This document shows positions 14,442-53,218 of a stretch of DNA of 64,000 bases, in pieces. The DNA is taken from contig CAWEPK010000012.1 in assembly GCA_963810935.1 (NCBI GenBank), forward strand, positions 160,001 to 224,000, read 5' to 3'. The DNA is from an uncultured delta proteobacterium. Lineage in GTDB: Bacteria; Desulfobacterota; Syntrophorhabdia; Syntrophorhabdales; WCHB1-27. Made by a program: the position numbers and the translations under genes. A model generated the notes under the pieces. The model saw only the letters and a program-made list of their open reading frames with translations. It was not told where the DNA came from and did not search any database. Position 1 is the first letter of the stretch. Each line of letters starts with the position of its first letter.

Positions 14442-14449
14442 CGATGTCA

Positions 14450-21590: not shown

Positions 21591-21602
21591 TTCCCCTCCT
21601 CC

Positions 21603-35276: not shown

Positions 35277-37695
35277 ATGCCTACTGCTACTGTGATACCG
35301 ATAGAAAACGAGATGCGCAGGTCCTATCTGGACTATGCGATGAGCACGATCATAGGCAGGGCGCTGCCCGATGCCCGCGACGGCCTCAAGCCCGTACACC
35401 GCAGGATCCTCTTCGCCATGTACGAGCTGAACAATACGCACGACAAGCCGTACAAGAAGTCTGCCAGGGTCGTCGGAGACGTTATAGGCAAGTACCATCC
35501 GCACGGCGACCAGGCGGTCTACGACGCCATCACCAGGATGGTGCAGGACTTCTCCATGAGGTACCCCCTCATCGACGGCCAGGGCAACTTCGGCTCCATA
35601 GACGGCGATGCCCCGGCTGCCATGCGTTACACGGAGGTGCGCCTCTCAAGGATCGCAGAGGAGATACTGGCCGACATAGAGAAGGACACCGTCGGTTTCA
35701 AGGTAAATTACGACGAGTCCCTGAAAGAGCCCATCGTAATGCCCTCGCGCATCCCCAACCTGCTGATAAACGGCTCGTCCGGCATCGCGGTCGGCATGGC
35801 CACCAATATCCCGCCCCACAACCTGACCGAGGTGGTGAACGCCACGATAGCCTTCATCGACAAACCGGATATCACCATCCCCGAATTGATGGAGCATATA
35901 CCCGGCCCCGATTTCCCCACGCAGGCATTAATTTACGGCAGGAAGGGCATCAAGGACGCTTACGAGACCGGGCGCGGCCACATACTCCTGCGGGCGACCA
36001 CGAACATCGAGAAGGGGAAGAAGGACGGCCGGGAATCGATCATCATCACGCAGCTTCCCTACCAGGTGAACAAGGCGCGCCTCATCGAGAACATCGTCGA
36101 GCTCGTCAACCAGAAGAAGATCGAGGGCATATCGAACATCCGCGACGAGTCGAACCGGGAAGGCATCCGGGTCGTCATCGAGTTAAAGCGGAATGAGATG
36201 GCCATGCCCATACTCAATAAGCTCTATAAGCAGACGCAGCTCCAGACGACATTCGGCATCATATTCCTGACCATCGTCAACAACCAGCCCAAGTACCTGA
36301 CCCTGAAGGAGATGATAAGCCACTTCGTCAACTTCAGGAAGGAAGTCGTAACCCGCCGCTCCACCTTCGAGTCTGAACAAGGCCCAGGACCGCCTGCACA
36401 TACTCGAAGGGCTGAAGATCGCCCTCGACAACATCGACCAGGTGGTCGCGATCATCAGGCGCGCGAAGAACACCGAAGAGGCGAGAAACGGTTTGATGAG
36501 CGCCTTTTCCCTCTCCGAGAGGCAGGCACAGAGCATCCTCGACATGCGCCTTGCCCGCCTCACGTCGCTCGAGCGCAACAAGATAACCGACGAGCTTGCA
36601 GCCGTCACCGAAGAGATAAAGCGGCTCTCGGCCATCCTGAAGGAAGAGCGCCTTCTCATGGAAGTCATAAAGAAGGAACTTACCGAAATCAGGGACAAGT
36701 ACGGCGACGGCAGGCTGACGGACATAGTGGACGAGCTGCCCGAGATTACGATCGAGGACATGATAAAGGAAGAAGAAGTCGTCGTCACGATCACTTACGG
36801 CGGCTATATAAAGAGGACCCCCCTCGACCTGTACAAGCAGCAGTTGCGCGGCGGCAAGGGCAAGATAGGCATCGCCGTGCGGGATGACGATTTCGTCAAC
36901 CAGCTCTACATCGCCTCGACCCACTCATATATTATCCTGTTTACGACCGCCGGCAGGGCGCATATCAGGAAGGTCCATACCATACCGGAAGCCCATCTTA
37001 CCGCGAAGGGAAAGCCGGTGATAAACCTCATCAAGGCGGAGAAGGACGAGAAGATCACGGCGGTAACGCACGTGAGGGATTTTCCGGAGGACAGGTACCT
37101 CTTCATCGCGACGAAAAAGGGCCGTGTGAAGAAGATCAGCATGGCCCTGCTCAAGAACGTGCGGCAGCCGGGCATAAAAGTGATCGACCTTCCCGACGAC
37201 GACCACCTGATGGACGTGCTTCCCGTCAACCCCGGCTCGGACCTCGTCCTCGGCACGAAGAAAGGCATGACCATCAGGTTCAGGGAAGAAGACGTGAGGC
37301 CGATGAGCAGGATAGCTTACGGGGTCATCGGCGTGCGCCTGCGCAAGGGCGACGAGCTTGTCTCCGTGGACGTGATGAACGACGCCTGCTCGCTCTTTAC
37401 GGTTACTGACAAAGGGTTTGGCAAGCGCGTAGACTGCAAAGAGTATAAGAACCAGGCCAGGGGCGGCATCGGCCTCATAAACGTGAAGTGCGAGCAGAAG
37501 AACGGCGAGGTGGTCGGCGCCAAGAGCGTGGGCCCCAGCGATGCCGTTATACTGGTGACGAATACGGGCAGGACCATAAGGTTCAACTCCGCCGAGATCC
37601 CCGTCCACTTCAGGGGCGGCCTCGGCGTGAAGCTCATGGGCCTGAAGGACGAGGAAGAAAGAATCAGCGGGTTCGGGATTATAAGCGAAGACTAG
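35277..37695 (+). CDS. gyrA: DNA gyrase subunit A (apparent frameshift near 36372)
   Basis: [16 protein letters not shown] and AAMRYTE motifs; GyrA-box-like QLRGGKG; C-terminal pinwheel repeats. Confidence 0.96.
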
Positions 37696-37713
37696 AGCGC
37701 AATGGAAAGCCCT

Positions 37714-37791
37714 AATGCCTCTTCCTTTTCATGAGGGGGAGGCTCCGGCGGCTGATGCAGCCGGAGGGGGCGACGCGAGCCCCGATAATTG
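37714..37791. repeat. Repeat family R, copy 1 (GGGGAGGCTCC-stem-GGAGGGGGCGACGC.AGCCCC..AATTG)
   Basis: Five related copies in the window; this one lies between two copies of the gyrA terminal 26 bp. Confidence 0.88.
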
Positions 37792-37824
37792 TGGTTCGGG
37801 ATTATAAGCGAGGACTAAGACAGA

Positions 37825-38817
37825 ATGAACCTGGCGGTAATCGGCGCAGGGGCATGGGGAACAGCCTTCTCGATGCAGCTTGCCTCCGCCGGCCACAAAG
37901 TCCTTCTCTGGGTCTATGAGCCGGACCTGCTTGAAATCATACGGACAACAAGAGAAAACACCTACTACCTGCCGGGCGTCCCACTGCCGGAAAATATCGA
38001 TTTCACGGGCGACCTCGAAGCTGCCGCCACATTCAGTGACGATATTGTTATAGCCACGCCTTCATTCGCCCTGCGGCCGGTGGTCGGCGCCATAGCAGGG
38101 GCGCTTTCGGCCAGGCGGCTCCTTGTGATAACCAAGGGGCTGGAACGCGCTACGCTCTTTACGATGAGTCGCATTGTGGCCGACGTCGAAGGTCAGGGCA
38201 CGCAAGTCGCGGTCCTGTCCGGCCCCTCGTTCGCACTCGAAGTAGCCAGGGGCTGTTTCACCTCCGTAGTCATAGCATCCGCAGACAAATCGCTCGCGCG
38301 CCGCTTCCAGGAGATAAGCCACACGGGCGCTTTTCGCGTCTACACGACCGACGACACGGCCGGCGTGGAGCTGGGCGGGGCGCTCAAGAACGTCATGGCC
38401 ATAGGGGCGGGCATCATCGAGGGCCTGGGCCTCGGAAGCAACACGCTTGCCGCGTACATGACGCGGGCGCTGGCGGAGATCAAGCGCCTCGGGGGCAGGA
38501 TGGGAGCGCGGGAGACGACGTTCATGGGGCTTTCGGGCATGGGGGACCTGATACTCACCTGCACCGGCCCCCTGAGCAGGAACAGGACATTCGGCATCGA
38601 GCTGGCGAAGGGAGGCGTCCCCGCCGCCCTGATCGCGTCACGCAAGGCCGTAGTCGAAGGATATTACACGATTGCGGCCGCACAGAGGCTTTCGCGCGAG
38701 GTAGGCGTGGAGATGCCCATCACGAGCGAGCTGCACCAGGTACTTTACGCAGGCAAGGACATAAGGACCGCCTTCGAGGACATAAGAAAGCGGGACACCA
38801 AGGATGAAGACGCCTGA
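37825..38817 (+). CDS. gpsA: NAD(P)H-dependent glycerol-3-phosphate dehydrogenase
   Basis: GAGAWGTA, TKGLE, SGPSFA, GGALKNV and GDLILTCT..SRN motifs. Confidence 0.96.
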   Translation: MNLAVIGAGAWGTAFSMQLASAGHKVLLWVYEPDLLEIIRTTRENTYYLPGVPLPENIDFTGDLEAAATFSDDIVIATPSFALRPVVGAIAGALSARRLLVITKGLERATLFTMSRIVADVEGQGTQVAVLSGPSFALEVARGCFTSVVIASADKSLARRFQEISHTGAFRVYTTDDTAGVELGGALKNVMAIGAGIIEGLGLGSNTLAAYMTRALAEIKRLGGRMGARETTFMGLSGMGDLILTCTGPLSRNRTFGIELAKGGVPAALIASRKAVVEGYYTIAAAQRLSREVGVEMPITSELHQVLYAGKDIRTAFEDIRKRDTKDEDA

Positions 38818-38835
38818 TCGGCGTCACCGGCCCGT

Positions 38836-39309
38836 CTATTCAAACGAAAAATCGAGGAACAGCTTCTCCGGCCCGTTGTCCGTCTCGAAGGTGAACGACA
38901 GGGAGATTACGGGCAGCTTCGTTATGAAGTTGATCTCCACGTTCTGGCCGATGATGACCGTCGGCAGGGCCGCCTTGAGATTGAAGCCCAGCTTTTCGAT
39001 CTCCAGCCTTGTCTGCCCGGATATGATGTTCGTAAGCTCGCCGATCGCGTCCACTACGTCGGGGGTCACCGACGCCGCCTCTTCGTCGACAAACCTCTTG
39101 TAGATGTAAGCCGCGCCTTTCTTGCTGAACGACAGGCTGAACGTGCCCTTCCTGTCCCCGGCAAAGCCGATCACGCCGGTCACGTCGCCCGAGCTGTAAT
39201 TGTCCTTCTTCAATACCGGCTTGCCCATCACGATATCGAGGGACAGCATCTTTTTGAAGACGTTCTGGACGGCTGCCAGGTACGCGTTTACAAATCCCGC
39301 TTCCATCAT
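38836..39309 (-). CDS. cheX: Chemotaxis phosphatase CheX
   Basis: GDVTGVIG and DAIGELTNIISG (ExxN) motifs; follows cheY. Confidence 0.88.
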   Translation of the reverse strand: MMEAGFVNAYLAAVQNVFKKMLSLDIVMGKPVLKKDNYSSGDVTGVIGFAGDRKGTFSLSFSKKGAAYIYKRFVDEEAASVTPDVVDAIGELTNIISGQTRLEIEKLGFNLKAALPTVIIGQNVEINFITKLPVISLSFTFETDNGPEKLFLDFSFE

Positions 39310-39695
39310 GCCGCCTGCCGGCTCTTGGCCTTCGCCACGGCCTTCTGGATGGCCTCCTGAAGCCTGTCGGGCGTAAACGGCTTGACAATATAGTTATCGA
39401 CGCCGTTCTTGATGGCCTCCATGACGCTGTCCTTCTGCGCCTCGGCCGTCACCATGATGAAGGGGATATTCTTGACCGCGTCGTCTTCCTTGCATATTTT
39501 TAGGAACTCTATGCCCGTCATCTCGGGCATGATCCAGTCGCTGACGATCAACTCGAAGCTCGAGTCTTTCTTCAGTATCTCGAACGCCTGACGGCCGTTC
39601 TCCGCCTCCGTCACATCCGTGATGTCGATCTGCCTCAGCACGTTCTTAATGATCTTCCTCATGGTAGCAAAATCATCGACTACCAGCGTCTTCAT
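39306..39695 (-). CDS. cheY: CheY-type response regulator
   Basis: VVDDFATMRKI, SDWIMP, MVTAEA and YIVKPFT motifs. Confidence 0.92.
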   Translation of the reverse strand: MKTLVVDDFATMRKIIKNVLRQIDITDVTEAENGRQAFEILKKDSSFELIVSDWIMPEMTGIEFLKICKEDDAVKNIPFIMVTAEAQKDSVMEAIKNGVDNYIVKPFTPDRLQEAIQKAVAKAKSRQAA

Positions 39696-40024
39696 AGCTC
39701 CTCCTGTAACAAGCTCGCTATTAGCGGGGATAGGCAAAACAACCGCCGCCATCGTCCTCCCCGCTCCCCTAACCCGGCTCTAAGTGATTAATCGGCAAAA
39801 AGGGAGTATTACTTAACACCTTTCACTAAAATCGGGTATTTTTACCCAGGCCCCAGTTTTAAGGGGGGAAGGGCGCTATGAACAGGCAGCGGTTTCTTAT
39901 AATTGTCAAATAAATTTGTTCGTGCTATCATCGTATTATCTTCATACTGCTGGGGCAGTCCACTAAGCTAATTAAACCCGTTTCTGTGAGAAGCAAAGTC
40001 TTTTGACAACGGAGAGACGCGCCT

Positions 40025-40414
40025 ATGGCGGAAACTTCATCCTCCGATAAAGAGCATATCCTGTTGGTAGACGACGAACCCGATGTCTTGGAGACTCAGG
40101 CACAGGTTCTCAGACGTATCGGATACTCTGTAGAGACGAGCGCAGATCCCATCGAGGCGATCAGTGTCTTCGAGGAAAACCCGAACCGATTCAAACTTGT
40201 AATAACGGACGAGATGATGCCGCATATGCGCGGTACAGGGATGGCAGCCCGGATGAAGGCTGTGCGCCCCGATCTCCCCTTCATTATAGTCACTGCCGGT
40301 CTTGACCTTGAAAGGACTCTAAAAGAAGCGGAAGCCATGCAAATCGATCACGTCCTTATGAAGCCGCTAAACATGCTATCCTTTGAGGCGGCTATCAAGA
40401 CGATCCTATCTTAA
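40025..40414 (+). CDS. Single-domain response regulator
   Basis: LVDDE, TDEMMP and MKP motifs. Confidence 0.88.
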   Translation: MAETSSSDKEHILLVDDEPDVLETQAQVLRRIGYSVETSADPIEAISVFEENPNRFKLVITDEMMPHMRGTGMAARMKAVRPDLPFIIVTAGLDLERTLKEAEAMQIDHVLMKPLNMLSFEAAIKTILS

Positions 40415-40432
40415 AGCAATCAGAATATCTTG

Positions 40433-42578
40433 TTATCCGTCAAAAGCCTTCTTCCGGCTGTCGAGTACCTGCCGCACCGTCTTTGCCAGTTTGCTCGCAG
40501 CCACAGGCTTCATGAGGAATTCGGCAATACCCGCTTGCTTTGCCTTCTTTGGCGACAAAGTGTCGCTATAGCCGGTAAAAAGGATTATGGGGAGATCGTT
40601 CCTGACCGCCACGATCTTCTCGGCGAGCTTCACGCCCGTCAGTTCGGGCATCACGTGGTCGGTGACGACCAGATCGAAGGCTCCGGGCTTGCTCTTAAAC
40701 TTCTTCAACCCTTCTCTTCCATTCTTGGCTGTAGTCACCTGATAGCCGAGACGTTCAAGTATCTTAGAAAGCATCTCGACGACGTCCGGCTCGTCGTCAA
40801 CGATTAGCACCCTCTCGTTGCCTCTAGGAAGGGAGCCTTCTTTGGCCCTTTCCTCTTTGGCTGCTCCCTCGTGCAACGGGAGAAACACCCTGAAGGTCGA
40901 GCCTTTGCCTATTTTCGTATCAACGGTAATGCCGCCGCCATGGCTCTTGACGATGCCGAATACGACCGCAAGCCCCATGCCCGTTCCCTTACTCTTGTCC
41001 TTCGTCGTAAAGAACGGCTCGAATATCCTGTCACGAATCTTCCTGGGTATGCCTGTGCCTGTGTCGCTCACGGTAAGGACGACGTACCGTCCGGACTGCA
41101 TGTCCTCATCAGGCTTCGGGTCGTTCTGCCCTATGGTGACATCGGATACGCCTATTGTAAGGACGCCGCCGTCTTCTCTCATTACGTGATCGGCATTGGT
41201 CGACAGGTTCATTATAACTTGCTGCAATTGAGAAGGGTCGGCTAGGACGGTATCAAAGTCGGTTACGGCATCGACCTTGATCTCGATGGTGCTGGGCAGC
41301 GTGCCTCGTAGCATCTTGGTGGTCTCTTTTACGAGAGGGATTAGACTGAACGGTCTTTTTGCCCCCTGTTGCTTCCTGCTGAAGGCCAGAATCTGCTTCA
41401 CAAGGTCGCTCGCCCGGCGAGATGCCTTAAGTATCTGATCAAGTTGATGCCCGATCCCGTTCATGCTGTTGCCTACCTCATCATGAGCAAGCTCGGCATT
41501 GCCCATGATGACGGCAAGCATGTTGTTGAAGTCATGGGCTATGCCTCCGGCGAGGGTGCCGACGGCTTCCATCTTCTGAGATTGCGCTAACCGTTCTTCT
41601 ATCTGCTGCCGTTGTTTGGTCTCTTCTATCAGTTTGTCGTAGGCATCCCGTAGCTCCACGGTGCGATCCTCAACCCGTTGTTCAAGCTCGTCACGGGAAC
41701 GACGGAGCTCTTCTTCTATCCGCTTTCGCTCCGTGACGTCTATCTGAACGCCGATCATGCGGACAGCCTTCCGCTGCTTGCCCTCTCCCTGAAAGTAGAC
41801 CTGTCCTTTACCCAGAGTCCAATGGACGGAGCCGTCGTCCCATATGATACGGTATTCACCCTCGTAACGGCCGTTCGCACCGGGCGTCAAAGATTCCCTG
41901 ACAGACTGCCTGAGCCGGGCGCGGTCGTCGGGATGAATACACTCTATGAGCCGGGCATAGTCAAGTTTCTCGTTTTCGCCTACGTCCCACATCCGCCGCA
42001 TGTTTGCGTCCCATGCTATCTCACCCGTGACAACATTGTAATCGAACGTGCCTATCTGAGCAGAATCGAGTGCAACGCGAGACCGCTTTTCCGTATCCCT
42101 AAGCACCTTCTCAAGTTCTCTTTGCCCGGTAATGTCTTTGAACAGGGCATGCAGGAACTTTCCGGTCGCAACAGTCTCCATTGATGAGGAGACGAGAAGG
42201 AAGAGCAGGGAGCCGTCGTCAAGGACAATCTTCATCTCCTCGTCCTTGACATACTCTCCTTTCAGGAGAGAGCGCATAAAGGGCCAGTCATCTGCGGCGT
42301 ATTCGGTTCCGTCGGTACGGAAGGCTTTGAATTGAGTGAACTGGGCAAAGCCGGCGAGGGGCGAGAACTTTGTTCGAAACATCTTGCTGGCAGTATTAGT
42401 AACACTGAGATACTTTGTATCGCTCCTAAAGAGCAGGCTACCTGTTCGCAGGGCCGGGAATCGTTCGGCGCTCTCAGAGGAACTTACAGGGGGGGGAGCC
42501 TTCTGGTGTCAAAGGGTTGTCCCTATTCTTTGCTGTGGAGGATTGCCTGTCAGAGGGATCGGTTCTTCTCTTTCTCAT
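40433..42578 (-). CDS. Cytoplasmic PAS-domain hybrid histidine kinase/response regulator (continuous ORF from 42382; probable start 42578 across a G8 run)
   Basis: PAS/PAC (IHPDDR), GIAHDFNNML, FEPFFTTK and REC motifs; removing one base from G8 (42489-42496) joins an upstream ATG frame. Confidence 0.85.
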
Positions 42579-43140
42579 GCCCTGTCCTGTTATATTAATC
42601 GTTGTGAGAAGAGACTGCGCAAGGAAGCCGTGGCGTCCGTATGGGCCGGCAAAACGGCTGGTCTTTTCACGAATAATTATACAGAGCCGTTTGAAATCCG
42701 TCAAGGATAGCAGATGTTTAGCATTTTCTGTACGTCGGTGGTCTATTCCCGTACAGGGGCTAAATGTTTCGAGGATGGAGCGGCAGATATCCTCTGGGCA
42801 CACCCGCTTCTCGGCATTATTTGTTTCACTACAGGCTCGCCCGGCTCTTTGATAGAGTTGCGGGATCGCTGACATGAGGCACCGACAAGATAGCACCCGG
42901 TAAGCAGGTTATAAGCACCTTGTTTTTGCTGATATTTCAGCAACACAAAAATAAGCATTTTAATATCGGTGCATCAAGGCCGGTGACCTTGCCTTCATAA
43001 CCCTGAGACATTACTATGTTTATACGTCTGTCCGGAGGGCCAATGGCCCGGATGCCGGATCATCCCATTAAATTATCCTCCGACCTGTTGTACGAACTGG
43101 CAGTCAGGGAGTGCCGTCGGAGGAAAGGGAGCAGGTGCCC

Positions 43141-43539
43141 ATGAAAGAAAAAGTATGTCTCGTCATCGTAGTCGATGACGAAAAAGAGGTGGAGGAGTGC
43201 CTACAAACAGTACTCGGAAGGCTGGGTTACGATGATGTCTCCTTCTACGATCCCTTGAAGGCTATTGAATACCTGCGTGACAGTGACGGGAGCATCGATC
43301 TTATCCTGAGCGATATAGCCATGCCCGGAATTGACGGAATCGAGCTAGCAAGAAGGGCGGGGGAGATAAAGCCGGATGTACCGGTTATCCTTTTGAGCGG
43401 CTATTCGGAAAGATTCCCTGAAGCAGCCGCCCTTCCAAATGTGAAAGGCGTCCTGCACAAGCCCGTTCTCAGGGCTGATCTTGCCGAAGCAGTCGAGAAT
43501 GTCATCAAGGGTTGCGGACACCGGAATAAGAGAATATAG
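43141..43539 (+). CDS. Single-domain response regulator
   Basis: VVDDE, SDIAMP and HKP motifs. Confidence 0.88.
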   Translation: MKEKVCLVIVVDDEKEVEECLQTVLGRLGYDDVSFYDPLKAIEYLRDSDGSIDLILSDIAMPGIDGIELARRAGEIKPDVPVILLSGYSERFPEAAALPNVKGVLHKPVLRADLAEAVENVIKGCGHRNKRI

Positions 43540-43624
43540 AAAATTAGCCGGCGCCATAGGCAACGACCGTGGCCTTCGAAGGTTCTCCCTTGAACTATCG
43601 CTATAGCAGGTCTACTATTTATTC

Positions 43625-44011: not shown

Positions 44012-44317
44012 GATAGCCCTCTATTCCCTCGTTTCTTTCGCTCTCTTTGTCTTTAAAGAATACACCTGCTTTCCTCGGTCGGCGTCGTCATGGCGCGACA
44101 CCGGGGCGACGTGTTCGGCCCCTATCATCCCCATACACTGTTGCAATTACAGGGGATACAGGGTTTCACTATGCGGGCTTGAATCCCGCCGGATCGAAGG
44201 GTTTTGCTCGGCCGGATATAGTGTGAAACGGACTTATGGAATGCTTATACTGTACAACAGGTGGCGGTGACGGGCGTAGAATCCTCTCTTGACATTAAAA
44301 TGAGCTGTGGAGGAAGC

Positions 44318-44626: not shown

Positions 44627-44726
44627 CCGGGCCTTTTTAAATACGGCCTTCCTGATCGCCCCGTTCGTTCTGTTCGCTTTAGCAGTTTCTACCTCTTAGC
44701 TTTTTATCCAAAACGCGATAATGGAA

Positions 44727-45782: not shown

Positions 45783-45966
45783 ACCTGAATATAACATTAT
45801 TTTAGGCGGAGGCGACGACCAAATCATGCCCGCTTCCCTGCCCGCGCCGCAATCCGGGGAAGCAAATCTTTGCCCTGCCCCTTGAATCCGCGACAGAAGC
45901 GAATGACAATAAATGACCCTGCTGTACACAGCAGGGTAACCAGGCCACGAGCGAAAGCGAGTTTTT

Positions 45967-46023
45967 GAGGGGGAGGCTCCGCGAGCTTTGCTCGTGGAGG
46001 GGGCGACGCTAGCCCCCAACTTG
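45967..46023. repeat. Repeat family R, copy 2
   Basis: GAGGGGGAGGCTCC-GCGAGC-ttt-GCTCGT-GGAGGGGGCGACGCTAGCCCC. Confidence 0.88.
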
Positions 46024-46081
46024 AAACTAAGCGAAATTTCTGGTATTATGAGTTTGGTTTTCCATAAGGAGGTTCAAACTC

Positions 46082-47434
46082 ATGGGCAAAAAGTTACGGT
46101 TCTCGTTAGGGATCCTCCTGACGGTCATTTTCGTCCTCGGCTTCCTGGCCGGAGCGCACGGGAACAAGATAGTCAGGAGCGCCCAAGGACAGGAGGTGTA
46201 TGAATACCTGAAAACACTCTCCGACGTCCTCGACATAGTAAAGAACAACTATGTCGATAAGGTAAATGACCGAGACCTTATCTACGCGGGCGTGAAGGGG
46301 ATGGTCGAGTCCCTCGACCCGCACTCCTCTTTTCTGACACCCGACATGTACAAGGAAATGCAGACCGAGACCAAAGGGGAGTTCGGCGGCATCGGTATCG
46401 AGATCACGCTAAAAGACGGTTTTCCGACGGTAATAACGGCAATAGAGGACACGCCCGCTTACAAGGCCGGCCTCAAGTCCTCAGACCAGGTCGTAAAAAT
46501 CGATAGCAAGCCTACGAAAAATATGGGTCTCGTCGACGTCGTCAAGCTCATCAGGGGCCAAAAGGGCAAGTCGGTAACGCTGACAATAATGCGCGAGGGC
46601 TTCAATATACCCAAGGATTTTCAGGTCAAGCGCGATATTATCACCGTCAAGAGCGTCAAATACAGGATGCTCGACGATAACTACGGCTACGTGCGCATCA
46701 CCCAGTTCCAGGAAAGGACGGGGAAAGACCTGAGCGCAGCAATCAAAGAGCTTACAAGACTGGCCAAGGGCGGCAACCTGAAAGGCGTACTCCTCGACCT
46801 GCGGAGCAACCCGGGCGGGCTGCTCGACCAGGCGGTGGACGTTTCCGATAAGTTCCTGAGCGACGGCCTCATCACCTACATAGAGGGCAGGAAGCCCGAA
46901 GAGAAGGTGAAATTCTCGGCGCACAACAACAAGTCCGATTACACGGGGCCGCTCGTAGTCCTCGTGAACGAGGGGAGCGCCAGCGGCTCGGAGATCGTGG
47001 CCGGAGCGCTTCAGGACACGAAAAGGGCCATAATCGTAGGGACGAAGACCTTCGGCAAGGGGTCCGTGCAGACGATCATACCCCTGCCGGACGGCTCGGC
47101 GGTGCGCCTCACGACGGCCAAGTATTACACACCCGCAGGCCGCTCGATCCAGGCGGACGGCATCAACCCGGACATCGTGGTCGAGAACGACCTGACCCGG
47201 ACGAAGGGCGAGAAATATACGCCGATAAAGGAAAAAGACCTCGACAGGCACCTGGAGGGCGCGAAGAAATCGGTGGAGCCGCAGGTGGAGCCGCCTAAGC
47301 TGGAAGAGAAGAAACACGAGGAAAGCGCACCGGCCGTCGACGGCCTGGGGCTCGCAAAGACGGATGAAGACGATATCCAGCTTGCAATGGGGCGCCAGAT
47401 ACTGAAGAGCTGGCAGGCACTCAGGGGCAAATAG
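46082..47434 (+). CDS. ctpA: Carboxyl-terminal processing protease (S41A, PDZ)
   Basis: LDPHS, GEFGGIGI, DLRSNPGG, SASGSEI and TFGKGSVQ motifs. Confidence 0.93.
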   Translation: MGKKLRFSLGILLTVIFVLGFLAGAHGNKIVRSAQGQEVYEYLKTLSDVLDIVKNNYVDKVNDRDLIYAGVKGMVESLDPHSSFLTPDMYKEMQTETKGEFGGIGIEITLKDGFPTVITAIEDTPAYKAGLKSSDQVVKIDSKPTKNMGLVDVVKLIRGQKGKSVTLTIMREGFNIPKDFQVKRDIITVKSVKYRMLDDNYGYVRITQFQERTGKDLSAAIKELTRLAKGGNLKGVLLDLRSNPGGLLDQAVDVSDKFLSDGLITYIEGRKPEEKVKFSAHNNKSDYTGPLVVLVNEGSASGSEIVAGALQDTKRAIIVGTKTFGKGSVQTIIPLPDGSAVRLTTAKYYTPAGRSIQADGINPDIVVENDLTRTKGEKYTPIKEKDLDRHLEGAKKSVEPQVEPPKLEEKKHEESAPAVDGLGLAKTDEDDIQLAMGRQILKSWQALRGK

Positions 47435-47476
47435 AGAAACGCAACCGGGATACGGCTTTTACGGAGAACCAACGAA

Positions 47477-47580
47477 GGGGTGATGTTAGCCCCGGTATTT
47501 GAAAATGCCTTTTCCTTTTTATGAGGGGGAGGCTCCGCCGGCTTTGCCGGGGGAGGGGGCGACGCTAGCCCCAGTAATTG
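47477..47580. repeat. Repeat family R, copy 3 (47504-47580) preceded by a partial copy (47477-47501)
   Basis: Same AATGCC.TTTCCTTTT.ATGAGGGGGAGGCTCC leader as copy 1; flanked by ACCAACG at 47468-47474 and 47582-47588. Confidence 0.85.
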
Positions 47581-47971
47581 CACCAACGGGGGAGGCGACG
47601 AGCCTCCCCTTCCATTCTGCCGGAATGCGCCTGGGCTTCCCCGACGCATCGACACAAACCATCAACGTCTCTCCGTCGGCGATCGGCCTGCCGCCCTTGG
47701 ATACAGCGTGGTGCAGGGAAAACTGGGCGTTCTTAACCACAACGACGGACGTCTCCAGATCGACCTCGTCCCCATACCGCAGCTTTTCGTTCAAATCCAC
47801 CCGGGCGGACTTGACCATAAGGTAGACGCCTTTCTCCTCCCATTCAGGCAGCGAAATGCCGAGGGACAATAAATGCTCGTACCAGGATTTTTCAAAGAGC
47901 TTAAGATAGTTGGCGAAGTAAACAACGCCCCCGGCGTCGGTGTCCTGGTAGTATATCCGCGTGCGGTACAT
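47519..47971 (-). CDS. YbgC/4HBT-family acyl-CoA thioesterase
   Basis: YYQDTDAGGVVYFANYL motif. Confidence 0.9.
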   Translation of the reverse strand: MYRTRIYYQDTDAGGVVYFANYLKLFEKSWYEHLLSLGISLPEWEEKGVYLMVKSARVDLNEKLRYGDEVDLETSVVVVKNAQFSLHHAVSKGGRPIADGETLMVCVDASGKPRRIPAEWKGRLVASPVGAITGASVAPSPGKAGGASPS

Positions 47972-48464
47972 ATGTTGTGAGACGATAGCATGTGTGGAGG
48001 CGCGGGGTCAATCGGCGGATGAAAAATCGGTGGGTAGAGAGTGACTGCTTTTGATACATCTTGCTTCCATGAAGGTCCCCGCCGTCTTTTGCATACAATG
48101 CCGCCGTTTTCGGGGTAATCATACGATGCTGGGAGGTTGTAATCTACACACATCGTCGTCGCTTCGCGCCCGTGAGCTTCCTGTAGTCGAGGTTTTGGTA
48201 TTTTCCTTGAGAATGCAACATTTGAAATGCAAATCTTCAATTTGTGCTTGAAAACCGGGGCTATTTCCATGGGCAAGTTTCCACTTGACTCTCCATTCCC
48301 AAAAGAGTATTTTTCGATTGTCAGATTCCACGTGTTTCTGATTAACCCAGCACGCTAGCCTCAACTTTTATTGCGTGTCGTAGAGAAAGAGCTTCAGAAG
48401 GTGCCCAAGTGGATGAAAACGAAGGCAATCACCTATCGCCTGCAAAAACCGGAAGGGGAATGAA

Positions 48465-49790
48465 ATGGCTCTAAGCATGAAGGACCGGCTGGATGGTTTA
48501 CCGCTGTCCCGCTGGCATTGGAACGTGATGCTGATATGTTCACTGGGATTTTTGTTTGACGGTATGGACAACATGATGATTTCATTTGCCCTTCCGGTAT
48601 TGATCAGTACCTGGAAACTTACTTCCCGACAAGCCGGGATAATCGGAAGTGCCGGCGTTGTCGGTATGGTGATAGGATCGTTCGTTTTTGGAATTTTGGC
48701 CGATTACCGGGGCAGAAGATATGTCTTTCAGACGACTATACTCGTGTATAGTCTTTTCACTGGCTTCTGCGCATTATCTGCGAATTGGGTAATGCTCATT
48801 GTCTTTCGCCTGATTGTCGGGACTGGGGTTGGAGGCCTTATTCCGGTTGACACCGCATACCTGACAGAGATGACTCCTCCCAAATACCGTGGAAAATTCC
48901 TTAGCCTCTTTAACGGAGCATGGCCAATTGGAGCCGCGGTCGCGGGTCTCCTTTCTTATTTTTTGGTTCCGGTTTTTGGTTGGCGGATTCTGTTCGTAAT
49001 AGGCGTATTGCCGGCCTTGATAGTTTTTTGGATCCGAAGATCCCTTCCCGAATCTCCCCGTTACCTTGTAAGCAGGAAGAAATTTGAGGAAGCCAAAAGA
49101 GAAATCTTTAAGATTGAAAAAAGAGTGCTGGGCAAAACGTCAGAAGAGGAAATAGTTTTTGATACGAACGTAGAGCAGCCCCCCCGCTCCAGTTTTGCAG
49201 AACTTTGGACCAGGCGCTTGCTAAAATCTACAATCGTCTCGATGATTCTCTGGTGGTGTCTGTCGTTTGCCTATTTTGGTATTTTTATTTGGTTGCCCAC
49301 TTTACTGACCAAAATGGGCGTACCTGTGGCCCGAGGGTACCTTTTAACAACCATCACCCTTCTAAGCGCAATTCCCGGTTTCGTAGCCGCCGCCTATTCC
49401 GTGGAGATCTTCGGGAGGAAAAAGACCCTTGTCGTATCATTCATCCTTTTTGCCTTTTTCACTTACATGTTTTTCCATGCAACCACCCAGGGAACGGCGT
49501 TAGCTGCTTTAATGCCACTCTCTTTCTTCAACGAAGTCGCCTGGTGTGCAGTATACGCTTATACTCCGGAATTATTTCCGACGCGAGCAAGAGGTACGGG
49601 AGGGGGTTGGGCTTCCACTTTTGGCCGTACGGGGTCGATTATCGCTCCATCTATTGTCGGCTTTTTTGTTGATATAAGCCGGACCACAGTAATGTGGGTA
49701 TTTGTCGGCGTGCTGATTCTTGCTGCCGTAACTACCTTGGTGGGTATCGAAACAAAAGGTAAACGTTTGGAAGACCTTTGGCCGGATTAA
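48465..49790 (+). CDS. MFS transporter (aromatic acid/metabolite:H+ symporter-like)
   Basis: FDGMD, GILADYRGRR, PESPRYL and ELFPTRARG motifs; AT-rich. Confidence 0.9.
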   Translation: MALSMKDRLDGLPLSRWHWNVMLICSLGFLFDGMDNMMISFALPVLISTWKLTSRQAGIIGSAGVVGMVIGSFVFGILADYRGRRYVFQTTILVYSLFTGFCALSANWVMLIVFRLIVGTGVGGLIPVDTAYLTEMTPPKYRGKFLSLFNGAWPIGAAVAGLLSYFLVPVFGWRILFVIGVLPALIVFWIRRSLPESPRYLVSRKKFEEAKREIFKIEKRVLGKTSEEEIVFDTNVEQPPRSSFAELWTRRLLKSTIVSMILWWCLSFAYFGIFIWLPTLLTKMGVPVARGYLLTTITLLSAIPGFVAAAYSVEIFGRKKTLVVSFILFAFFTYMFFHATTQGTALAALMPLSFFNEVAWCAVYAYTPELFPTRARGTGGGWASTFGRTGSIIAPSIVGFFVDISRTTVMWVFVGVLILAAVTTLVGIETKGKRLEDLWPD

Positions 49791-49844
49791 CAGCCTGACC
49801 TAACCGTTCTGATTGTTATTGACGCACAGAATGATTTTTGTGCT
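49791..49844 (+). pseudogene. Remnant of a cysteine hydrolase (isochorismatase-family) N-terminus
   Basis: Translates to QPDLTVLIVIDAQNDFCA, matching the IDxQNDF motif; no start codon and no continuation. Confidence 0.5.
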
Positions 49845-49900
49845 ACATCAGCGACAAGGAAAAGTAGATCGAACGAAATACAGGCGGGAGGAAGCGGAAG

Positions 49901-51247
49901 ATGATAGATGACTTGAGAACCCAACTGGAAGCCGTGGAAAACTGGGGAGAGGTGTTGCACATCCGGAAGGAGGTAAACCCCCGGTTTGAGCTTCCGGCGA
50001 TTTGCAAGAAACTCGAGGCGGGAAAAGCAGTGATCTTCGAAAAGGTAAAGGGATATTCCATGCCCGTGGTGGTGGGCCTGGACAACAGCCGTTCCCGAAT
50101 GGCCCGCGTCCTGGGCACCGATGACTTCGGCCTGACTCCCCGATATCTGGAGGCGATCCGCAATCCCTTACCCCCGGTGGTCGTGAAAGACGGGCCCGTC
50201 AAGGAAGTAAAGATTACACGGGACATCGACCTCCTGAAGACCCTGCCGGTCATCACCCACTACGAAAAAGACGGGGGACCCTATATCACCGCCGGGGTGG
50301 TCATAGCCGAAGACAAGAACCGGGGCGTTCGCAATATCTCCTACCAGCGGATGCAAATCACGGGGAAAGATGAGATCGGGCTTCTCATTCAGCCCCGGCA
50401 CCTCTGGAAGCTCTACACGGACAGAGAAAAAGAGAACCAACCTTTAGAAGTGGCCGTGGCCATCGGGCTGGATACCGGCATCCGCCTCGCCGGGGCGACC
50501 TGGGGTTCCCTGATCCCCCTGGGTTTCGATGAACTCTCCATTGCCGGAGCCCTGAGACAGAAGGCCGTGGAGATCGTACCCTGCGAAACCGTGGGGGTCA
50601 TGGTCCCCGCCCGGGCGGAGATCGTCCTGGAAGGAGAAATCCTGCCGGGGACGCGAAAGACCGAAGGCCCTTTTGCGGAGTTCACCGGGACCTACGGTGA
50701 CGTCTGGGAGAATCCCGTTCTCCGGGTGAAAGCCATAACCCACCGGAGGGAGCCGATCTATCAGGACCTCTTAACCTTCACGCCCGAACATCATCTGCTC
50801 CTGGGCGTCCCCTATGAGCCCGTGGTCTACCAGGCAGTCAGGACCTATGTCCCCGGAACAAGGGCGGTGCATATTACCCCGTCCGGTTGTGGCAAGTTTC
50901 ATGTCGTAATCTGCATCCGGAAGGAACATGAGGGAGACGGCAAGGACGCGATCCTGGCCGGCCTCTACAGCGTCCGGGACATCAAGCTGGTCACGGTGGT
51001 GGATGAGGACGTGGACCCTTTTAACCCCCGGGACGTGGAGTGGGCGGTGGCCACGCGATTTCAGGCAGACAGAGACCTGGTTGTAATTTCCGGGGCCAAA
51101 GGTAATGAGCTGGACCCGTCCTGCCCCCAGTTGGCCCTGACAGCCAAGATGGGGATTGATGCCACCAAGCCCTTAGCCCGGAGCGAGCGGTTCGAGAAGA
51201 TCCGCATCCCCGGGGTTGAAGACCTCAAGGTCCAGGATTATTTATGA
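49901..51247 (+). CDS. UbiD-family (prFMN-dependent) decarboxylase/carboxylase
   Basis: DGGPYITAG, EIVLEG, EGPFAEFTG and VVDEDVDP..VEWAVATRFQ motifs. Confidence 0.92.
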   Translation: MIDDLRTQLEAVENWGEVLHIRKEVNPRFELPAICKKLEAGKAVIFEKVKGYSMPVVVGLDNSRSRMARVLGTDDFGLTPRYLEAIRNPLPPVVVKDGPVKEVKITRDIDLLKTLPVITHYEKDGGPYITAGVVIAEDKNRGVRNISYQRMQITGKDEIGLLIQPRHLWKLYTDREKENQPLEVAVAIGLDTGIRLAGATWGSLIPLGFDELSIAGALRQKAVEIVPCETVGVMVPARAEIVLEGEILPGTRKTEGPFAEFTGTYGDVWENPVLRVKAITHRREPIYQDLLTFTPEHHLLLGVPYEPVVYQAVRTYVPGTRAVHITPSGCGKFHVVICIRKEHEGDGKDAILAGLYSVRDIKLVTVVDEDVDPFNPRDVEWAVATRFQADRDLVVISGAKGNELDPSCPQLALTAKMGIDATKPLARSERFEKIRIPGVEDLKVQDYL

Positions 51248-51294
51248 CCCGGAGGCCATTCATTCCGTAACCATGACCGGTGCTTCCGACGCCG

Positions 51295-51350
51295 GGCGGG
51301 GAGGCTCCGCAGGCTTTGCCCGTGGAGGGGGTGCTGAACCCCAATAATTG
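51295..51350. repeat. Repeat family R, copy 4
   Basis: GGGGAGGCTCC-GCAGGC-ttt-GCCCGT-GGAGGGGGTGCTGAACCCC-AATAATTG; abuts the stop of the rhodanese gene. Confidence 0.82.
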
Positions 51351-51351
51351 T

Positions 51352-51783
51352 TTACTTCGGCTCGGTGGGATAGCCCGCTTTTACCCAGCCGGACCACCCG
51401 CCTTTGAGGGCATAAACTTTTGAGTAACCTTTTTTGGAGAAGAGGAGCGCCATACTGGCGCTCGTCGCTTCGTGGAGTCAGTCGCAGTAGAAAACGAGCG
51501 TCTTGTCCTTTGGGACCTTCTCCATCATGGCCTTGGCGCTCGATGGGTTCAGCCTGACCGCCCCTTTGATCTTATTGGAGCTATCGTTCCATTCACTGTC
51601 TATCCGGGAGTCGAGAATGACTACGTCCGGATTTCCCAACATGGACTTCAACTGTTCCGCAGTCATGCGCGGCACCTTGTCGGCCGAAGTTATCGCCGAC
51701 ATGGCGATACCGGCTGCTACAAGCCCCGCGACGAGTATAATCGCAAGCCATTTCACGACACTAACCCCACTCGCATGTGTCAT
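51352..51783 (-). CDS. Rhodanese-like selenoprotein (Sec at TGA 51480-51478); start uncertain
   Basis: Frame continues past TGA as LVFYCD-U-LHEATSASMALLLSKKGYSKVYALKGGWSGWVKAGYPTEPK, completing a rhodanese domain; SECIS-like hairpin follows; N-terminal signal/TM segment. Confidence 0.88.
51445..51463 (-). promoter_or_regulatory. Candidate bacterial SECIS hairpin
   Basis: GAGCGCCA-GTA-TGGCGCTC 8-bp stem starting 14 nt after UGA; loop begins with GU. Confidence 0.75.
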
Positions 51784-51901
51784 ATTATAAGTGTAAGTGC
51801 GGCTGATGTCAGGCGCAAGCGGGAGCGGCTGGAAAGGACAGGTCCGTCCGGTATAGACTATGGCGCCGGGCGGGCAAAAACAAACGCGCAAGGAGACGAC
51901 C

Positions 51902-52870
51902 GTGAATACCGATATATGCAGCTTCGAGACGCTGGCTCCGGAAGTGAAGAAATTCCTCAAGCTGATGAAGGATATCCCCCAGCCGCCCATATCGATGAAG
52001 ACCTACAAGGCCATTCGCCAATTCATGGCGTCCACGGTCAAAAACGTTGAAAGGCAGAGCTTCTCCGGCACCGTGGAGGACATAACTATACCCGGCCCCG
52101 CAAGACCCATCCCGGTCCGCGTCTACCGGCCCGATTCAGCGAAAGATCCCCTGCCCCTCCTGCTCTATTTCCACGGCGGAGGGTTTGTCCTGGGAGACCT
52201 AGATATGGAAGAAGACACTTGCATTGCCCTTGGCTGGCAGACGCCGTGTGTCGTCGTCTCGGTCGATTACGCCCTGGCGCCTGAGCACCCATCCCCGGCC
52301 GCGCGCGAGGAAGCTTACGCAGCCCTCCTCTGGGCAGCCGGACACGCAGGCGAGATAGGGGCGGACGCAGGAAGGATTGCAGTCGCAGGCCAGAGCGCGG
52401 GGGGCAACCTGGCGGCAGTCATCTCCATCATGTCGAGGGACCTGGGAGGACCGACTATCGCCTTCCAGGCGCTTTTCTATCCTGCAACGGACCTCGCAGC
52501 CGGCGCCAGCCCGTCGCGTCGCGATTTCAGTAAAGGGTTTTTCCTGGACGCACGCGATATGGAAGGGGTCGTTTCCATGTATGTCCCTGACGAGAAGGAC
52601 CGCCTGCACCCCTATGTCTCACCGCTGCGCGTCCAGGACGCCTCCCGCCTGCCCCCTGCCCTCGTGGTAACCGCAGGATGCGACCCCTTGCGGGACGAGG
52701 GGGAGGCATACGCAAGAAGGCTGTCCGATGCAGGCGTAAAAGCGGAAATCTTCCGGCTCGGCGACATGATCCATGCCTTCCTTTACCTCTTCAAATCGGC
52801 CGGCAGCACCAGGCGCGTAATCGAGACCACAGCCGCCCGGCTGCGGGAGGCATTCGGCCCCCGCACTTGA
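51902..52870 (+). CDS. Alpha/beta hydrolase (HSL/Aes-type esterase)
   Basis: HGGGF, VDYALAPEHP, GQSAG, DPLRDEG and H motifs. Confidence 0.92.
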   Translation: MNTDICSFETLAPEVKKFLKLMKDIPQPPISMKTYKAIRQFMASTVKNVERQSFSGTVEDITIPGPARPIPVRVYRPDSAKDPLPLLLYFHGGGFVLGDLDMEEDTCIALGWQTPCVVVSVDYALAPEHPSPAAREEAYAALLWAAGHAGEIGADAGRIAVAGQSAGGNLAAVISIMSRDLGGPTIAFQALFYPATDLAAGASPSRRDFSKGFFLDARDMEGVVSMYVPDEKDRLHPYVSPLRVQDASRLPPALVVTAGCDPLRDEGEAYARRLSDAGVKAEIFRLGDMIHAFLYLFKSAGSTRRVIETTAARLREAFGPRT

Positions 52871-52911
52871 GCCGCAATGATTGTAATAAAGCAAGCGTAT
52901 GCGCCGAGCCG

Positions 52912-52967
52912 AGCGGGGTGGCTCCGCGAGCTTCGCTCGTGGAGGGGGCGCTGAGCCCCATTGATTG
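52912..52967. repeat. Repeat family R, copy 5
   Basis: GGGGTGGCTCC-GCGAGC-ttc-GCTCGT-GGAGGGGGCGCTGAGCCCC-ATTGATTG; followed directly by a copy of the esterase 3' end. Confidence 0.85.
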
Positions 52968-53218
52968 AGACCACAGCCGCCCGGCTGCGGGAGGCATTAG
53001 GCCCGGCCTGAGATCCAAGGCCGAGGTCGCGTCTTGTCGGGCGAGACGCCTGTCTTTCCACTCAAGACTTCTGTCTTCCGCCGTAAGACCCGCCCTGCTC
53101 CGCTGCGCCATCTTTAGGCGCTTTTTCGCCGCTGTAACCATATGGGGCGAAAGGCACGCTTCTTGTAACAAGTCAGAGGATCGCACAAATAAAACCGGCC
53201 GGCGCCTAGCAGGAGAGC

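Follow-up and report, generated by a model that had tools for sequence, protein, structure and literature searches.

Within the 64-kb window, by which we mean the whole stretch of DNA analysed, the 3′ end of gyrA is present twice. The upstream copy (37670..37695, + strand), which is functional and presumed to be the incoming one, ends in TAG and is supported by a short-read contig. It is followed by an insert (37696..37792, +) consisting of a 19-nt unique spacer, a leader, a copy of a repeat that we call R and one additional T after the terminal ATTG of the repeat. The downstream copy (37793..37818, +), a displaced gyrA end, begins 1 nt after ATTG, ends in TAA and runs into the start of gpsA. 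The two copies differ by one synonymous change and by their stop codons. The insert is absent in a sister genome, G002, and R with a duplication is found at gyrA or its equivalents in five other genomes, with differing junctions. The same layout is observed at an esterase (alpha/beta hydrolase) gene, where an upstream 3′ end with new last codons and a new stop (52824..52870, +) precedes an insert made of a degenerate R end, a leader and R ending in ATTG (52871..52967, +; absent in G002). The displaced esterase end (52968..53011, +) begins 0 nt after ATTG and its last codons are similar to the gene end in G001; the copies share an identical core of ~32 bp, with 47 bp to the stop, and both carry host-specific changes relative to G002.

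In the ctpA-ybgC spacer the duplication is only 7 bp long, with the upstream copy (47468..47474, +) directly after GA, an insert of degenerate R end, leader and R (47475..47581, +), and a downstream copy (47582..47588, +) that starts 1 nt after ATTG and is continuous with the ybgC coding sequence. These 7 bp are single-copy in G002, which is empty at this site, and so represent a true duplication. The ybgC gene lies on the minus strand, opposite to R, and has lost its last codons and stop, gaining a new 18-residue C-terminus. The original prediction that the gene is restored with the donor allele therefore does not always hold, as ybgC, the esterase and a hemG-like gene have all gained new C-termini. 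A further R copy (45963..46024, +) has no duplication, is common to G002 and is absent in G001, and another (51291..51351, +) forms the right boundary of an MFS and UbiD cargo (~48.0-51.3 kb), a locus at which G002 carries other cargo and homology restarts at 51352. All coordinates first proposed for gyrA, the esterase, ybgC and nuoN were confirmed. Short-read contigs from four runs of one study, possibly of the source sample, cover the gyrA end to R (37149-37739) with 0 differences and the esterase end to R with 4 differences. The left junctions at these two genes are thus covered by contigs; the ybgC junction was reached with only 27 nt on one side, below the 31-nt threshold of the search. 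One run carries an extra-G variant at position 37792.

R is a non-coding, REP-like hairpin repeat with ~160 copies in the source genome, G000 (148 matches at E < 1e-3; 164 scorable ends). As seen in the gyrA insert, it follows a pyrimidine-rich leader and consists of an inner hairpin, a terminal hairpin and an 8-nt tail ending in ATTG, and in general its 3′ end is the terminal hairpin plus 8-9 nt, ...ATTG(C/T). It is the top strand that folds (459/555 Watson-Crick, 55 G-T and 8 A-C pairs) and the covariation of the stems exceeds that of all 500 shuffles. A scan of the window against Rfam gave 0 matches at the gathering threshold, and matches in 6 loci were all sub-threshold. The copies are mostly singlets in direct arrays, the inserts are 50-320 nt long and non-coding, and the unique spacers beside R were not seen next to other R copies in the genome. 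R has the same orientation as the upstream gene at 118/164 ends, compared to a background of 43%, and duplication is commoner in this orientation (24/118 vs 2/45, p=0.015). The active strand lies on the lagging-strand template in 36 copies and the other way in 49, among the 85/164 that could be scored and with a weak skew. The inner loop of R is similar to the end hairpins of local IS200 elements, R is a target for both IS110 and IS200 elements, and some copies are carried within a non-autonomous unit with IS200-like ends, which inserts without duplication.

A second repeat, family A, had been noted as having the same layout at nuoN. Here two copies of the nuoN 3′ part (14004..14440, +, flanked by family A, and 21798..22233, +, with the junction inside a family-A repeat) enclose a 7.3-kb cargo encoding Usp, FBPase and a PAS histidine kinase between two family-A repeat pieces (14449..21797, no strand assigned). 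The duplication is ~435 bp long and the copies differ at 30 codons synonymously and 2 non-synonymously, so that gyrA and nuoN do both differ almost only synonymously, as first noted. However, the nuoN junction does not coincide with an ATTG end, and its position in G002, which also has the cargo (G001 lacks it), is ~85 nt away. We found a duplication at 0/11 and 0/13 family-A motif ends. The nuoN locus is a different case from R. No integrase had been noticed in the intervals, and a Pfam search of the five nuoN-cargo reading frames and the other interval frames scanned gave 0 integrase or transposase matches; a DDE (rve) gene lies just outside the nuoN interval (22453-23487). None of eight tyrosine-recombinase matches fell on this contig, C12, or in the interval frames. 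We rejected a tyrosine or serine recombinase att-site element, given that the direct repeats are locus-specific and variable and no integrase match is linked to them.

Across the genome, an upstream copy of the sequence beginning 0-2 nt after ATTG was found at 26/164 R ends, scored by ungapped identity, which favours young, similar pairs. Random sites gave 3/2991, anchors shifted by 200-1000 nt gave 0, 0, 2 and 0 of 163-164, and the opposite end of R gave 1/164. The 26 duplications fall at 19 gene or tRNA loci and three plain arrays, and measure 7-105 bp. In other genomes the figure was 48/208, arrays included, against 1/207 in the control; loci and genomes in these counts are non-independent. 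The predicted association of a structured repeat with a displaced second gene end is therefore genome-wide and extends to relatives. It is not restricted to gene 3′ ends, as had been supposed, since two events, at ddl and one small gene, double gene starts with their promoters, on the antisense strand. Arrays of 2-3 units also exist, in which the tandem units start exactly at the junction.

We compared 62 loci that are full in only one of two sister genomes, the other being empty. Homology restarts 0-3 nt after ATTG in 43/62, with overlaps from +100 to -875, in line with the fixed junction that was predicted, and the empty sites reveal either duplications or replacements at the same end. The junction is fixed at the R 3′ end and the left end is variable. 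Replacements, in which 4-875 bp of resident DNA are exchanged, outnumber duplications (34 vs 10 loci). GA is found at 13/32 junctions, compared to 8.5% expected (p=8e-7), with G at -1 in 19/32, A at 0 in 16/32 and G at +1 in 15/32, and C|T is required on neither strand. None of the 10 duplication loci has a junction overlap of more than 1 nt; in 8/34 replacements it is at least 2 nt. Mismatch upstream of the junction is 4-9%, similar to that downstream, with no clear long divergent tract upstream. At the best locus 50 nt are free of mismatches, so the anchoring homology may extend no further than the duplication itself. The gene-side anchor initially envisaged need not be long, as at one locus sequence that looks foreign begins right at the junction.

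The two copies differ like alleles. Between them pN/pS is 0.16 (20 synonymous changes at 222 sites vs 11 non-synonymous at 753; p=0.002), where neutral decay of a plain duplicate would give 0.5. Of those duplications that reach a stop codon, 20/24 end -2 to +7 nt from it, compared to 25% in simulations of a variable duplication filtered by selection (p=3e-9). Where an empty allele is available, 20 of its informative sites agree with the downstream copy and 8 with the upstream one (13 vs 1 without two alignment-ambiguous loci; 4 vs 2 at dsrB), a polarity that is indirect where it is read from G002, a different species (~95%). This agrees with the prediction that the old gene end is left behind R. 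In one case copies of 16 bp differ by ACC/ACT, AGG/AGA and TAA/TAG, the downstream one being the empty allele, and one G002 locus has two different foreign ends in tandem followed by the resident end, with a foreign end similar to the G003 allele. At the hemG-like locus a second-haplotype contig of the same assembly is a mosaic, with two upstream-like and two downstream-like sites. Taken together, it is most likely that R arrives with the tail of the neighbouring gene, taken from another strain. A resident R to which DNA of an empty strain became joined would likewise be expected to have an empty-like downstream copy.

Our preferred reading, to which we give a probability of roughly 0.6, is that incoming DNA with R at its end finds its partner by homology and is then joined with next to no microhomology, often after GA. 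During horizontal exchange the R 3′ end would provide a DNA strand end at a defined position. DNA from a strain carrying R beside a gene may enter single-stranded (ComEC is present in 5/5 genomes), and the strand would be cut, or its degradation halted, at the R 3′ end, most likely by a site-specific single-strand nuclease acting in trans, HUH- or Ssn-like. The homologous gene end would pair with the chromosome, displacing the resident strand, and the R end would be joined to that strand nearby, often just after GA and with an overlap of at most 1 nt. Where the joint falls short of the point at which homology ends, usually the stop codon, the old gene end would remain after R as a second copy, 7-105 bp long; a joint beyond that point would replace resident spacer DNA. 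Repeated rounds could refresh the downstream copy and build small arrays, and the net effect would be that R homes from full to empty alleles, exchanging gene termini.

The 7-bp ybgC case is hard to reconcile with a donor allele, because the donor ybgC would already be broken. It would suit a different process, in which R inserts de novo and the variable target-site duplication is copied from the recipient by a staggered or replicative route, the synonymous differences coming later through ordinary recombination with other strains or as the direct repeats expand and contract (concerted evolution). The shared host-specific changes of the esterase copies and the arrays of 2-3 units are consistent with this, as are the 17/32 pairs without a scored coding difference, though for recent events every model would predict such pairs. 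Homogenisation could also account for copies that track their host at shared junctions. We take such copies as support for the preferred reading. At one junction common to G012, G009 and G021, with a homologous spacer, both copies have mostly host-specific synonymous states (distances of 2, 0 and 1 within genomes vs 1-7 between), and a tldD-like junction gives 0 and 0 within vs 4 between; against it, for gyrA in G009 the within-genome distance (2) equals that between genomes. However, de novo insertion predicts neither the stop-codon ends, nor the low pN/pS, nor the 34 replacements from the same fixed end, nor 16-bp copies with several synonymous differences of which the downstream one is the empty allele, and we consider it unlikely.

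The foreign-like sequence starting at the junction of the best-resolved locus, the recurrence of one junction across species and the tandem units that start exactly at the junction could point to a small single-stranded circle, running from an upstream GA through gene end and spacer to the R 3′ end. Such a circle would be excised by a HUH-type enzyme, as in rolling-circle termination, move between cells and re-enter a homologous site by junction re-cleavage or short-repeat crossover; TnpA-REP can cut and join away from its hairpin, as far as the available part of that report describes (PMC3333891). Yet replacements of 4-875 bp at the same end are left unexplained, crossovers would be poorly supported by repeats of 7-16 bp that differ at several positions, and no HUH gene linked to R was found. 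No circle joint was listed in the four short-read runs, although their low-depth contigs drop rare forms. We regard this reading as decidedly improbable. Target-primed reverse transcription of a read-through transcript of gene end and R, with resolution by homology as in retroposons whose duplications vary and whose 5′ ends are truncated, would fit the fixed 3′ end (0-2 nt jitter), the ragged 5′ side, the co-orientation of R and its duplications with the upstream gene, and the RT genes in 17/21 family genomes. It is very unlikely, as a search found no RT in G000 or G002 (93% and 66% complete, respectively), each of which has recent R events, gene starts and promoters were duplicated on the antisense strand in two cases, and a cell's own transcript cannot provide a foreign allele. 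G000 is a long-read metagenome bin with 7% contamination, frameshift-type errors and second-haplotype contigs, but an assembly or strain-mixing artefact is already largely refuted and can practically be discounted, since the layout recurs with different junctions in many independently assembled genomes, left junctions are covered by short-read contigs, and an artefact would favour neither one position after ATTG nor synonymous changes.

Under the preferred mechanism of joining at the R end, there is close to an even chance that the agent is a nuclease of Ssn-like or other type, or that host enzymes join an end protected by a protein; a HUH enzyme is somewhat less probable, and anything else is unlikely. 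The predicted tie to a HUH (RAYT/TnpA-like) nuclease did not emerge, as none of 30 Y1 loci from 18 genomes is an R-flanked HUH or RAYT gene. The 28 Y1 loci of relatives (fetched Y1 matches; genomes 66-98% complete) have no full R beside them, with two weak partial matches, and those of G000 are IS200 copies only. The latter use the R tail merely as a target, cutting ~3 nt upstream of the R junction, and the guide pairing, by what we take to be its rule, fits the IS200's own ends, ~3 nt from that junction. Small GIY-YIG loci in family genomes have other repeats or none, and the match in G000 is UvrC-sized only. Thus no RAYT, Ssn or RT gene was found tied to R in these searches. It is possible, and we offer this tentatively, that a dedicated single-strand cut-and-join enzyme recognises the terminal hairpin and tail of R and joins them to GA sites in the displaced homologous strand. 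R would then be a homing element guided by the host gene end, needing as little as tens of bases of homology, crossing species and exchanging protein termini and gene starts.

The footprint of R makes the spread of such repeats testable, as dozens of independent events give testable rules: a fixed end, a preferred target dinucleotide, a length set by the end of homology and a resident allele downstream. If the mechanism is correct, apparent target-site duplications can record past replacement of alleles between strains and species, housekeeping proteins would have their ends rewritten (C-termini of ybgC, the esterase and the hemG-like gene; a new ddl start), and repeats could enter tight operons with both genes intact. 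An activity that joins single strands under the direction of a hairpin would, in addition, be useful as a tool.

We know of no described class that joins a fixed hairpin end with homology-chosen targets. R resembles insertion with long target duplication in its variable, imperfect direct repeats, often over a start or stop codon, in the lack of an integrase, and in that such insertions are known mostly from naturally competent species and their mechanism is unresolved. The cargo there consists of RM genes, whereas R inserts are short and non-coding, there are dozens of R events and tests of the copies indicate two alleles; nuoN is closer to that class than R is, though its cargo has no restriction-modification match. 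In the part of the source available no mechanism is shown (PMC2853133) and no fixed element end is described, whereas the R junction is fixed to 0-2 nt. With REP, BIME and REPIN sequences and their TnpA-REP (RAYT), R shares >100 intergenic hairpin copies, arrays, strain polymorphism, a strand-asymmetric fold and targeting by IS110 and IS200 elements, and the available parts of those reports describe neighbouring gene ends captured between REPs and no anchored long duplications (PMC2817692, PMC3333891, PMC3116915, PMC8266576). R differs in having no R-flanked tnpA-REP among the loci searched, in being mostly a singlet in direct arrays rather than an inverted doublet, and in a junction unlike the TnpA-REP C|T site or guide-matched dinucleotide near the hairpin. 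The Ssn nucleases with NTS/SRM repeats are similar in their hairpin repeat of hundreds of copies, which fixes a single-stranded DNA cut a few nt from the stem, and in acting on transforming DNA. SsnA, however, cuts upstream of its hairpin and lowers integration, and no joining or duplication is described in the available part of that work (PMC11893778); the small GIY-YIG genes of this family come with distinct repeats of their own, and no such gene turned up in G000. IS200/IS605 elements, with their non-autonomous derivatives, likewise combine a hairpin with a fixed single-strand cut, but, going by the available portions of the reports, insert without duplication (PMC2817692, PMC3333891), whereas R gives duplications of 7-105 bp or replacements. 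A retroposon or TPRT element differs from R in the RT that G000 and G002 were found to lack and in the antisense gene-start cases.

In homology-facilitated illegitimate recombination the joints are reportedly not tied to a sequence element and show several bases of microhomology, whereas the R joint is fixed, has an overlap of at most 1 nt in duplications and prefers GA. The available part of the source describes segment replacement in competent bacteria in which one side pairs by homology and the other is joined without it (PMC2884548). R is alike in these respects, as pN/pS, stop-codon ends and polarity indicate one-sided homology and a replaced tract that carries the donor allele.

The small non-coding hairpin repeat R marks one end of a footprint in which the end of the neighbouring gene is present twice, once upstream of the repeat and once as a displaced copy starting 0-2 nt past its terminal ATTG. 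An HMM built from the five window copies located R at 170 places in the 4.06-Mb source assembly (G000), 148 of them at E<1e-3. The repeat consists of a variable leader, a purine box, an inner hairpin, a terminal hairpin and an 8-nt tail, after which conservation stops abruptly; ATTG is present in 89 of 164 ends, the next base is C or T, and nothing is conserved beyond. Although its sequence varies, the inner stem is paired in 459 of 555 cells, and the excess of G-T over A-C combinations (55 vs 8) identifies the ATTG-bearing strand as the one that folds. Covariation among 25 copies was higher than in every one of 500 shuffles and higher than in any slid control, a figure inflated by related sequences. 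A search of Rfam gave no match to R.

Taking a match score of at least 12 and an upstream copy no more than 400 nt away, we found that 26 of the 164 R ends in G000 have an upstream match to the sequence starting 0-2 nt past ATTG. Shifted anchors gave 0, 0, 2 and 0 matches, random sites 3 in 2991, and the other end of R 1 in 164. When the start position was freed between -6 and +29, 17 of 42 matches began at +1. The positive ends come from 19 loci, each a gene or a tRNA, and from 3 plain R arrays; three of the loci have 2-3 tandem units. An unbiased search gave 31 hits for doubled gene ends, of which 13 have R at the junction and one more has an IS200 in the tail of R. The other hairpin families of G000 gave no anchored duplication (0/8, 0/8, 0/11, 0/13, 0/1 and 0/1). 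Of 208 ends in other genomes, 48 were positive, arrays counted, vs 1 in about 200 for each control. At gyrA the related genomes G001, G003, G021 and G009 each have a duplication of their own (12, 20, 61 and 46 bp, respectively), and the sister genome G002 is empty.

The two copies are allele-like. From 397 distinct R ends we obtained 61 candidates and, from these, 32 coding loci; the other 29 rows were non-coding or tRNA copies, array-internal units or repeats of the same locus. Across the 32 loci there are 20 differences at 222 synonymous sites and 11 at 753 non-synonymous sites, giving a pN/pS of 0.16 vs 0.5 expected for neutral decay of the downstream copy (p=0.002), and the mostly synonymous divergence first noticed in the window is thereby borne out. 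No coding difference was scored in 17 of the pairs. Among 24 copies that reach the stop codon, 20 end within -2 to +7 nt of it, compared with 25% in simulated variable duplications filtered by selection (p=3e-9), as expected if the copy end marks the limit of donor-recipient likeness.

At differing sites the empty allele, which has no R insert, agrees with the downstream copy at 20 and with the upstream copy at 8; two ambiguously aligned loci contribute 7 sites each way, and the balance is 13 vs 1 once they are dropped. For dsrB the empty allele favours the downstream copy by 4 sites to 2, and at a hemG-like locus the second haplotype within the G000 assembly is mosaic. Second haplotypes of 91-99% identity occur in this assembly in contig C14 against C12:275-288 kb, C14 being empty at the hemG-like R locus, and also in C6/C4/C11 and C13/C8. 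In one locus of G002, two different foreign ends stand in tandem ahead of the resident end, and each is accompanied by R. The first foreign end resembles the G003 allele and the 45 nt 5' of the junction are those of G000, which places the start of the foreign tract at or near the junction. The full/empty comparison showed no long divergent donor tract. Three genomes of another genus have a common junction and a homologous spacer, and both copies mostly carry the synonymous states of their own host, so the downstream copy is renewed, either through repeated homing or through concerted evolution.

In G000, two dsrAB paralogues (G000:C8:662340-664680 and C10:306031-308374) have 2.3 kb in common at 98.8% identity, ending exactly at the 3' end of R with different old ends behind; paralogue conversion explains this block equally well. 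A second pair of paralogous blocks (G000:C8:175641-178052 and C17:157497-159909) ends at a stop codon just 5' of an R, and the two pairs span 2.3-2.4 kb at 98.8-99.5% identity. Gene identities in the window come from Pfam on 20 ORFs; the dsrAB, hemG-like, ddl, tldD-like and IS110 labels, outside the window, are our own reading of protein sequences, and Ku was assigned by family search.

Re-reading the window upheld the duplications in the original prediction. The last 26 bp of gyrA are repeated starting 1 nt past ATTG, the last codons of the esterase gene 0 nt past it and 7 bp at ctpA/ybgC 1 nt past it, and about 435 bp of nuoN are present again 7.8 kb further on. Among the 20 ORFs checked with Pfam, none in an interval is an integrase or transposase. 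Contrary to the proposal, the gene is not always restored: ybgC lost its last codons to the insert and its coding frame now runs into R. At nuoN, the case involving the larger composite repeat, family A, nearly all differences between the copies are indeed synonymous (30 vs 2), but the claim of a junction at a fixed end did not hold. The junction lies inside the composite repeat. With the same cargo, G002 has its junction about 85 nt off, and nuoN is single-copy in G001. Family-A ends elsewhere show no anchored duplication, and nuoN is best classed with long-target-duplication insertions. A DDE (rve) transposase gene lies just 3' of the second nuoN copy (window 22453-23487), and the composite repeat, with about 10 genome copies, bounds a further 7.7-kb interval (26100-26300 and 33890-34043). 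An MFS transporter and a UbiD-family decarboxylase form cargo whose right end is exactly at an R copy (47990-51351); G002 has unrelated cargo at this site. Apparent frameshifts in gyrA (36360) and the upstream nuoN copy (14140-14215) are probably long-read indel errors.

Full and empty sites were compared between G000 and G002 (3.6-Mb assembly) over about 2.2 Mb of tiles, overlaps included. Of 66 G000 arrays mapped, 21 are empty in G002, and 41 of 84 G002 arrays are empty in G000. Homology with the empty allele resumes 0-3 nt past ATTG at 43 of 62 full/empty loci. The overlap ranges from +100 to -875: one end is variable, and the right end is fixed alike for 10 duplications and for 34 events that are near-clean or replace DNA. 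Eight of these 34 have a 2-6 nt overlap, and later loss in the other genome may account for the replacements. Large cargo is seldom tied to R, with only 4 of 100 synteny breaks of at least 400 bp ending at a copy. At several others of the 62 loci homology resumes at about 56 nt, owing to a separate R-carrying unit with IS200-like ends and clean insertion. This non-autonomous unit of about 167 bp (G000:C12:103870-104012; G002 loci L190, L203 and L217) has a copy of R inside IS200-like terminal hairpins, inserts with a 0-6 bp change, and its ends resemble IS200 elements of G004, not those of G000.

The target shows a weak preference for GA directly 5' of the junction, found in 13 of 32 loci vs 8.5% (p=8e-7), with jitter of about 1 nt at other loci. 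The duplications have no microhomology, the overlap between R tail and target being at most 1 nt in 10 of 10 loci. In 118 of 164 cases R points the same way as the upstream gene, and duplication is commoner in this orientation (24/118 vs 2/45, one array dropped; p=0.015). Counts by replication strand gave no clear direction.

We suggest, with a probability of about 0.6, that DNA is taken up as a single strand, that an end is generated at R, that the incoming strand pairs within the gene terminus and that the R end is joined to the displaced strand. The uptake step is proposed on the basis of ComEC, present in 5 of 5 genomes. De novo duplication with recombination afterwards is unlikely overall; the ybgC case looks more like a fresh 7-bp duplication. 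A circular intermediate seems less probable again, and no circle or excision joint was found in low-depth short-read contigs. Among the RNA data sets listed, none contains this DNA. Reverse transcription is very improbable: the two opposite-orientation duplications double a gene start with its promoter, which argues for a DNA donor rather than a sense-RNA donor, and no reverse transcriptase was found in the incomplete G000 and G002 assemblies. End joining by NHEJ is probably not required: Ku is present in 16 of 22 genomes, but the search did not detect it in G009, a 98% complete genome with duplications that look fresh. In G000 an R copy and a LigD-like start come after a Ku gene (C12:369629-370600).

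A dedicated new enzyme system may underlie the footprint, though we lean against it. The HUH (RAYT/TnpA-like) nuclease gene bounded by R, envisaged originally, did not emerge: the Y1 genes found in the incomplete G000 assembly are 7 near-identical IS200 copies only, and none of the Y1 genes examined in relatives, whose assemblies are incomplete too, is R-flanked. These IS200 copies (L001-L009, e.g. G000:C12:368507) target a TAAT motif, 4 of 7 inside the tail of R, and presumably cut about 3 nt 5' of the R junction by the guide-pairing rule. By eye, a screen of 3755 predicted proteins for the H-hydrophobic-H motif yielded only IS200 as HUH-like; a search for IS91-type Y2 proteins gave 0 matches in 5 genomes, and its controls gave no match either. 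Clustering 2778 ORFs near R revealed no recurring nuclease in the 45 largest clusters, and DUF559 matched in 1 of 5 genomes. The small GIY-YIG (Ssn-like) genes examined are bounded by other repeats, none being R-flanked; one, with its own hairpin repeats, lies 3' of gyrA in G008 (L447), in the gyrA-gpsA spacer that houses R in other genomes.

IS110 elements were rejected as agents, as they insert inside the leader of R or family A and not at the junction. One IS110-like element (G000:C10:159279, C7:218154, C18:9796 and C20:7) occupies the same point of the leader in the 3 copies with an intact left flank; a second (C5:83373, C7:15873, C17:104561 and C17:17173) lies within the family-A composite in 2 of 4 copies. 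Three R copies follow an orphan Cas6-like gene (G000:C17:88704-89384) that belongs to the operon for anaerobic ribonucleotide reductase. With its hairpin and 8-nt tail, R is reminiscent of the end of a CRISPR repeat; a search of G000 for CRISPR-like arrays was negative. This gene has R no more than 1.5 kb away in 7 of 20 genomes, and the place varies. This link is weak and Cas6 enzymes cut RNA, so it too was set aside.

The exact R pattern occurs in at least 109 stretches, and the matches listed, 80 in all, are Syntrophorhabdales, Syntrophaceae and deltaproteobacterial records; it was present in 3 genomes of a phylum-wide sample of 121 and in one phage contig. There (L363/L364) two R copies lie 5' of genes for portal-like and scaffold-like proteins, and after each copy comes a similar 25-nt motif, seen too after some chromosomal R copies. 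The core of R also occurs, with differing tails, in lower-GC metagenome contigs. A set of 35 metagenome loci, mostly from lower-GC lineages with variable tails, gave 1 clear non-array duplication in 32 scored ends; the strong footprint may thus be limited to lineages with the ATTG tail.

Repeat-anchored allele replacement is a real, recurrent footprint and apparently an undescribed one; full-text searches, which covered few subscription journals and no supplements, gave no paper in which the end of a repeat serves as the fixed junction of duplications with allele-like copies. The anatomy of R is like that of REP elements (PMC2817692, PMC3333891, PMC3116915, PMC8266576) and of the SRM/Ssn system (PMC11893778), but we found no linked TnpA-REP or Ssn. 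In its working R is closer to insertion with long target duplication, except that R lacks the RM cargo of that class (PMC2853133). It also works like homology-facilitated illegitimate recombination (PMC2884548), but the joint at R is fixed and forms without microhomology.
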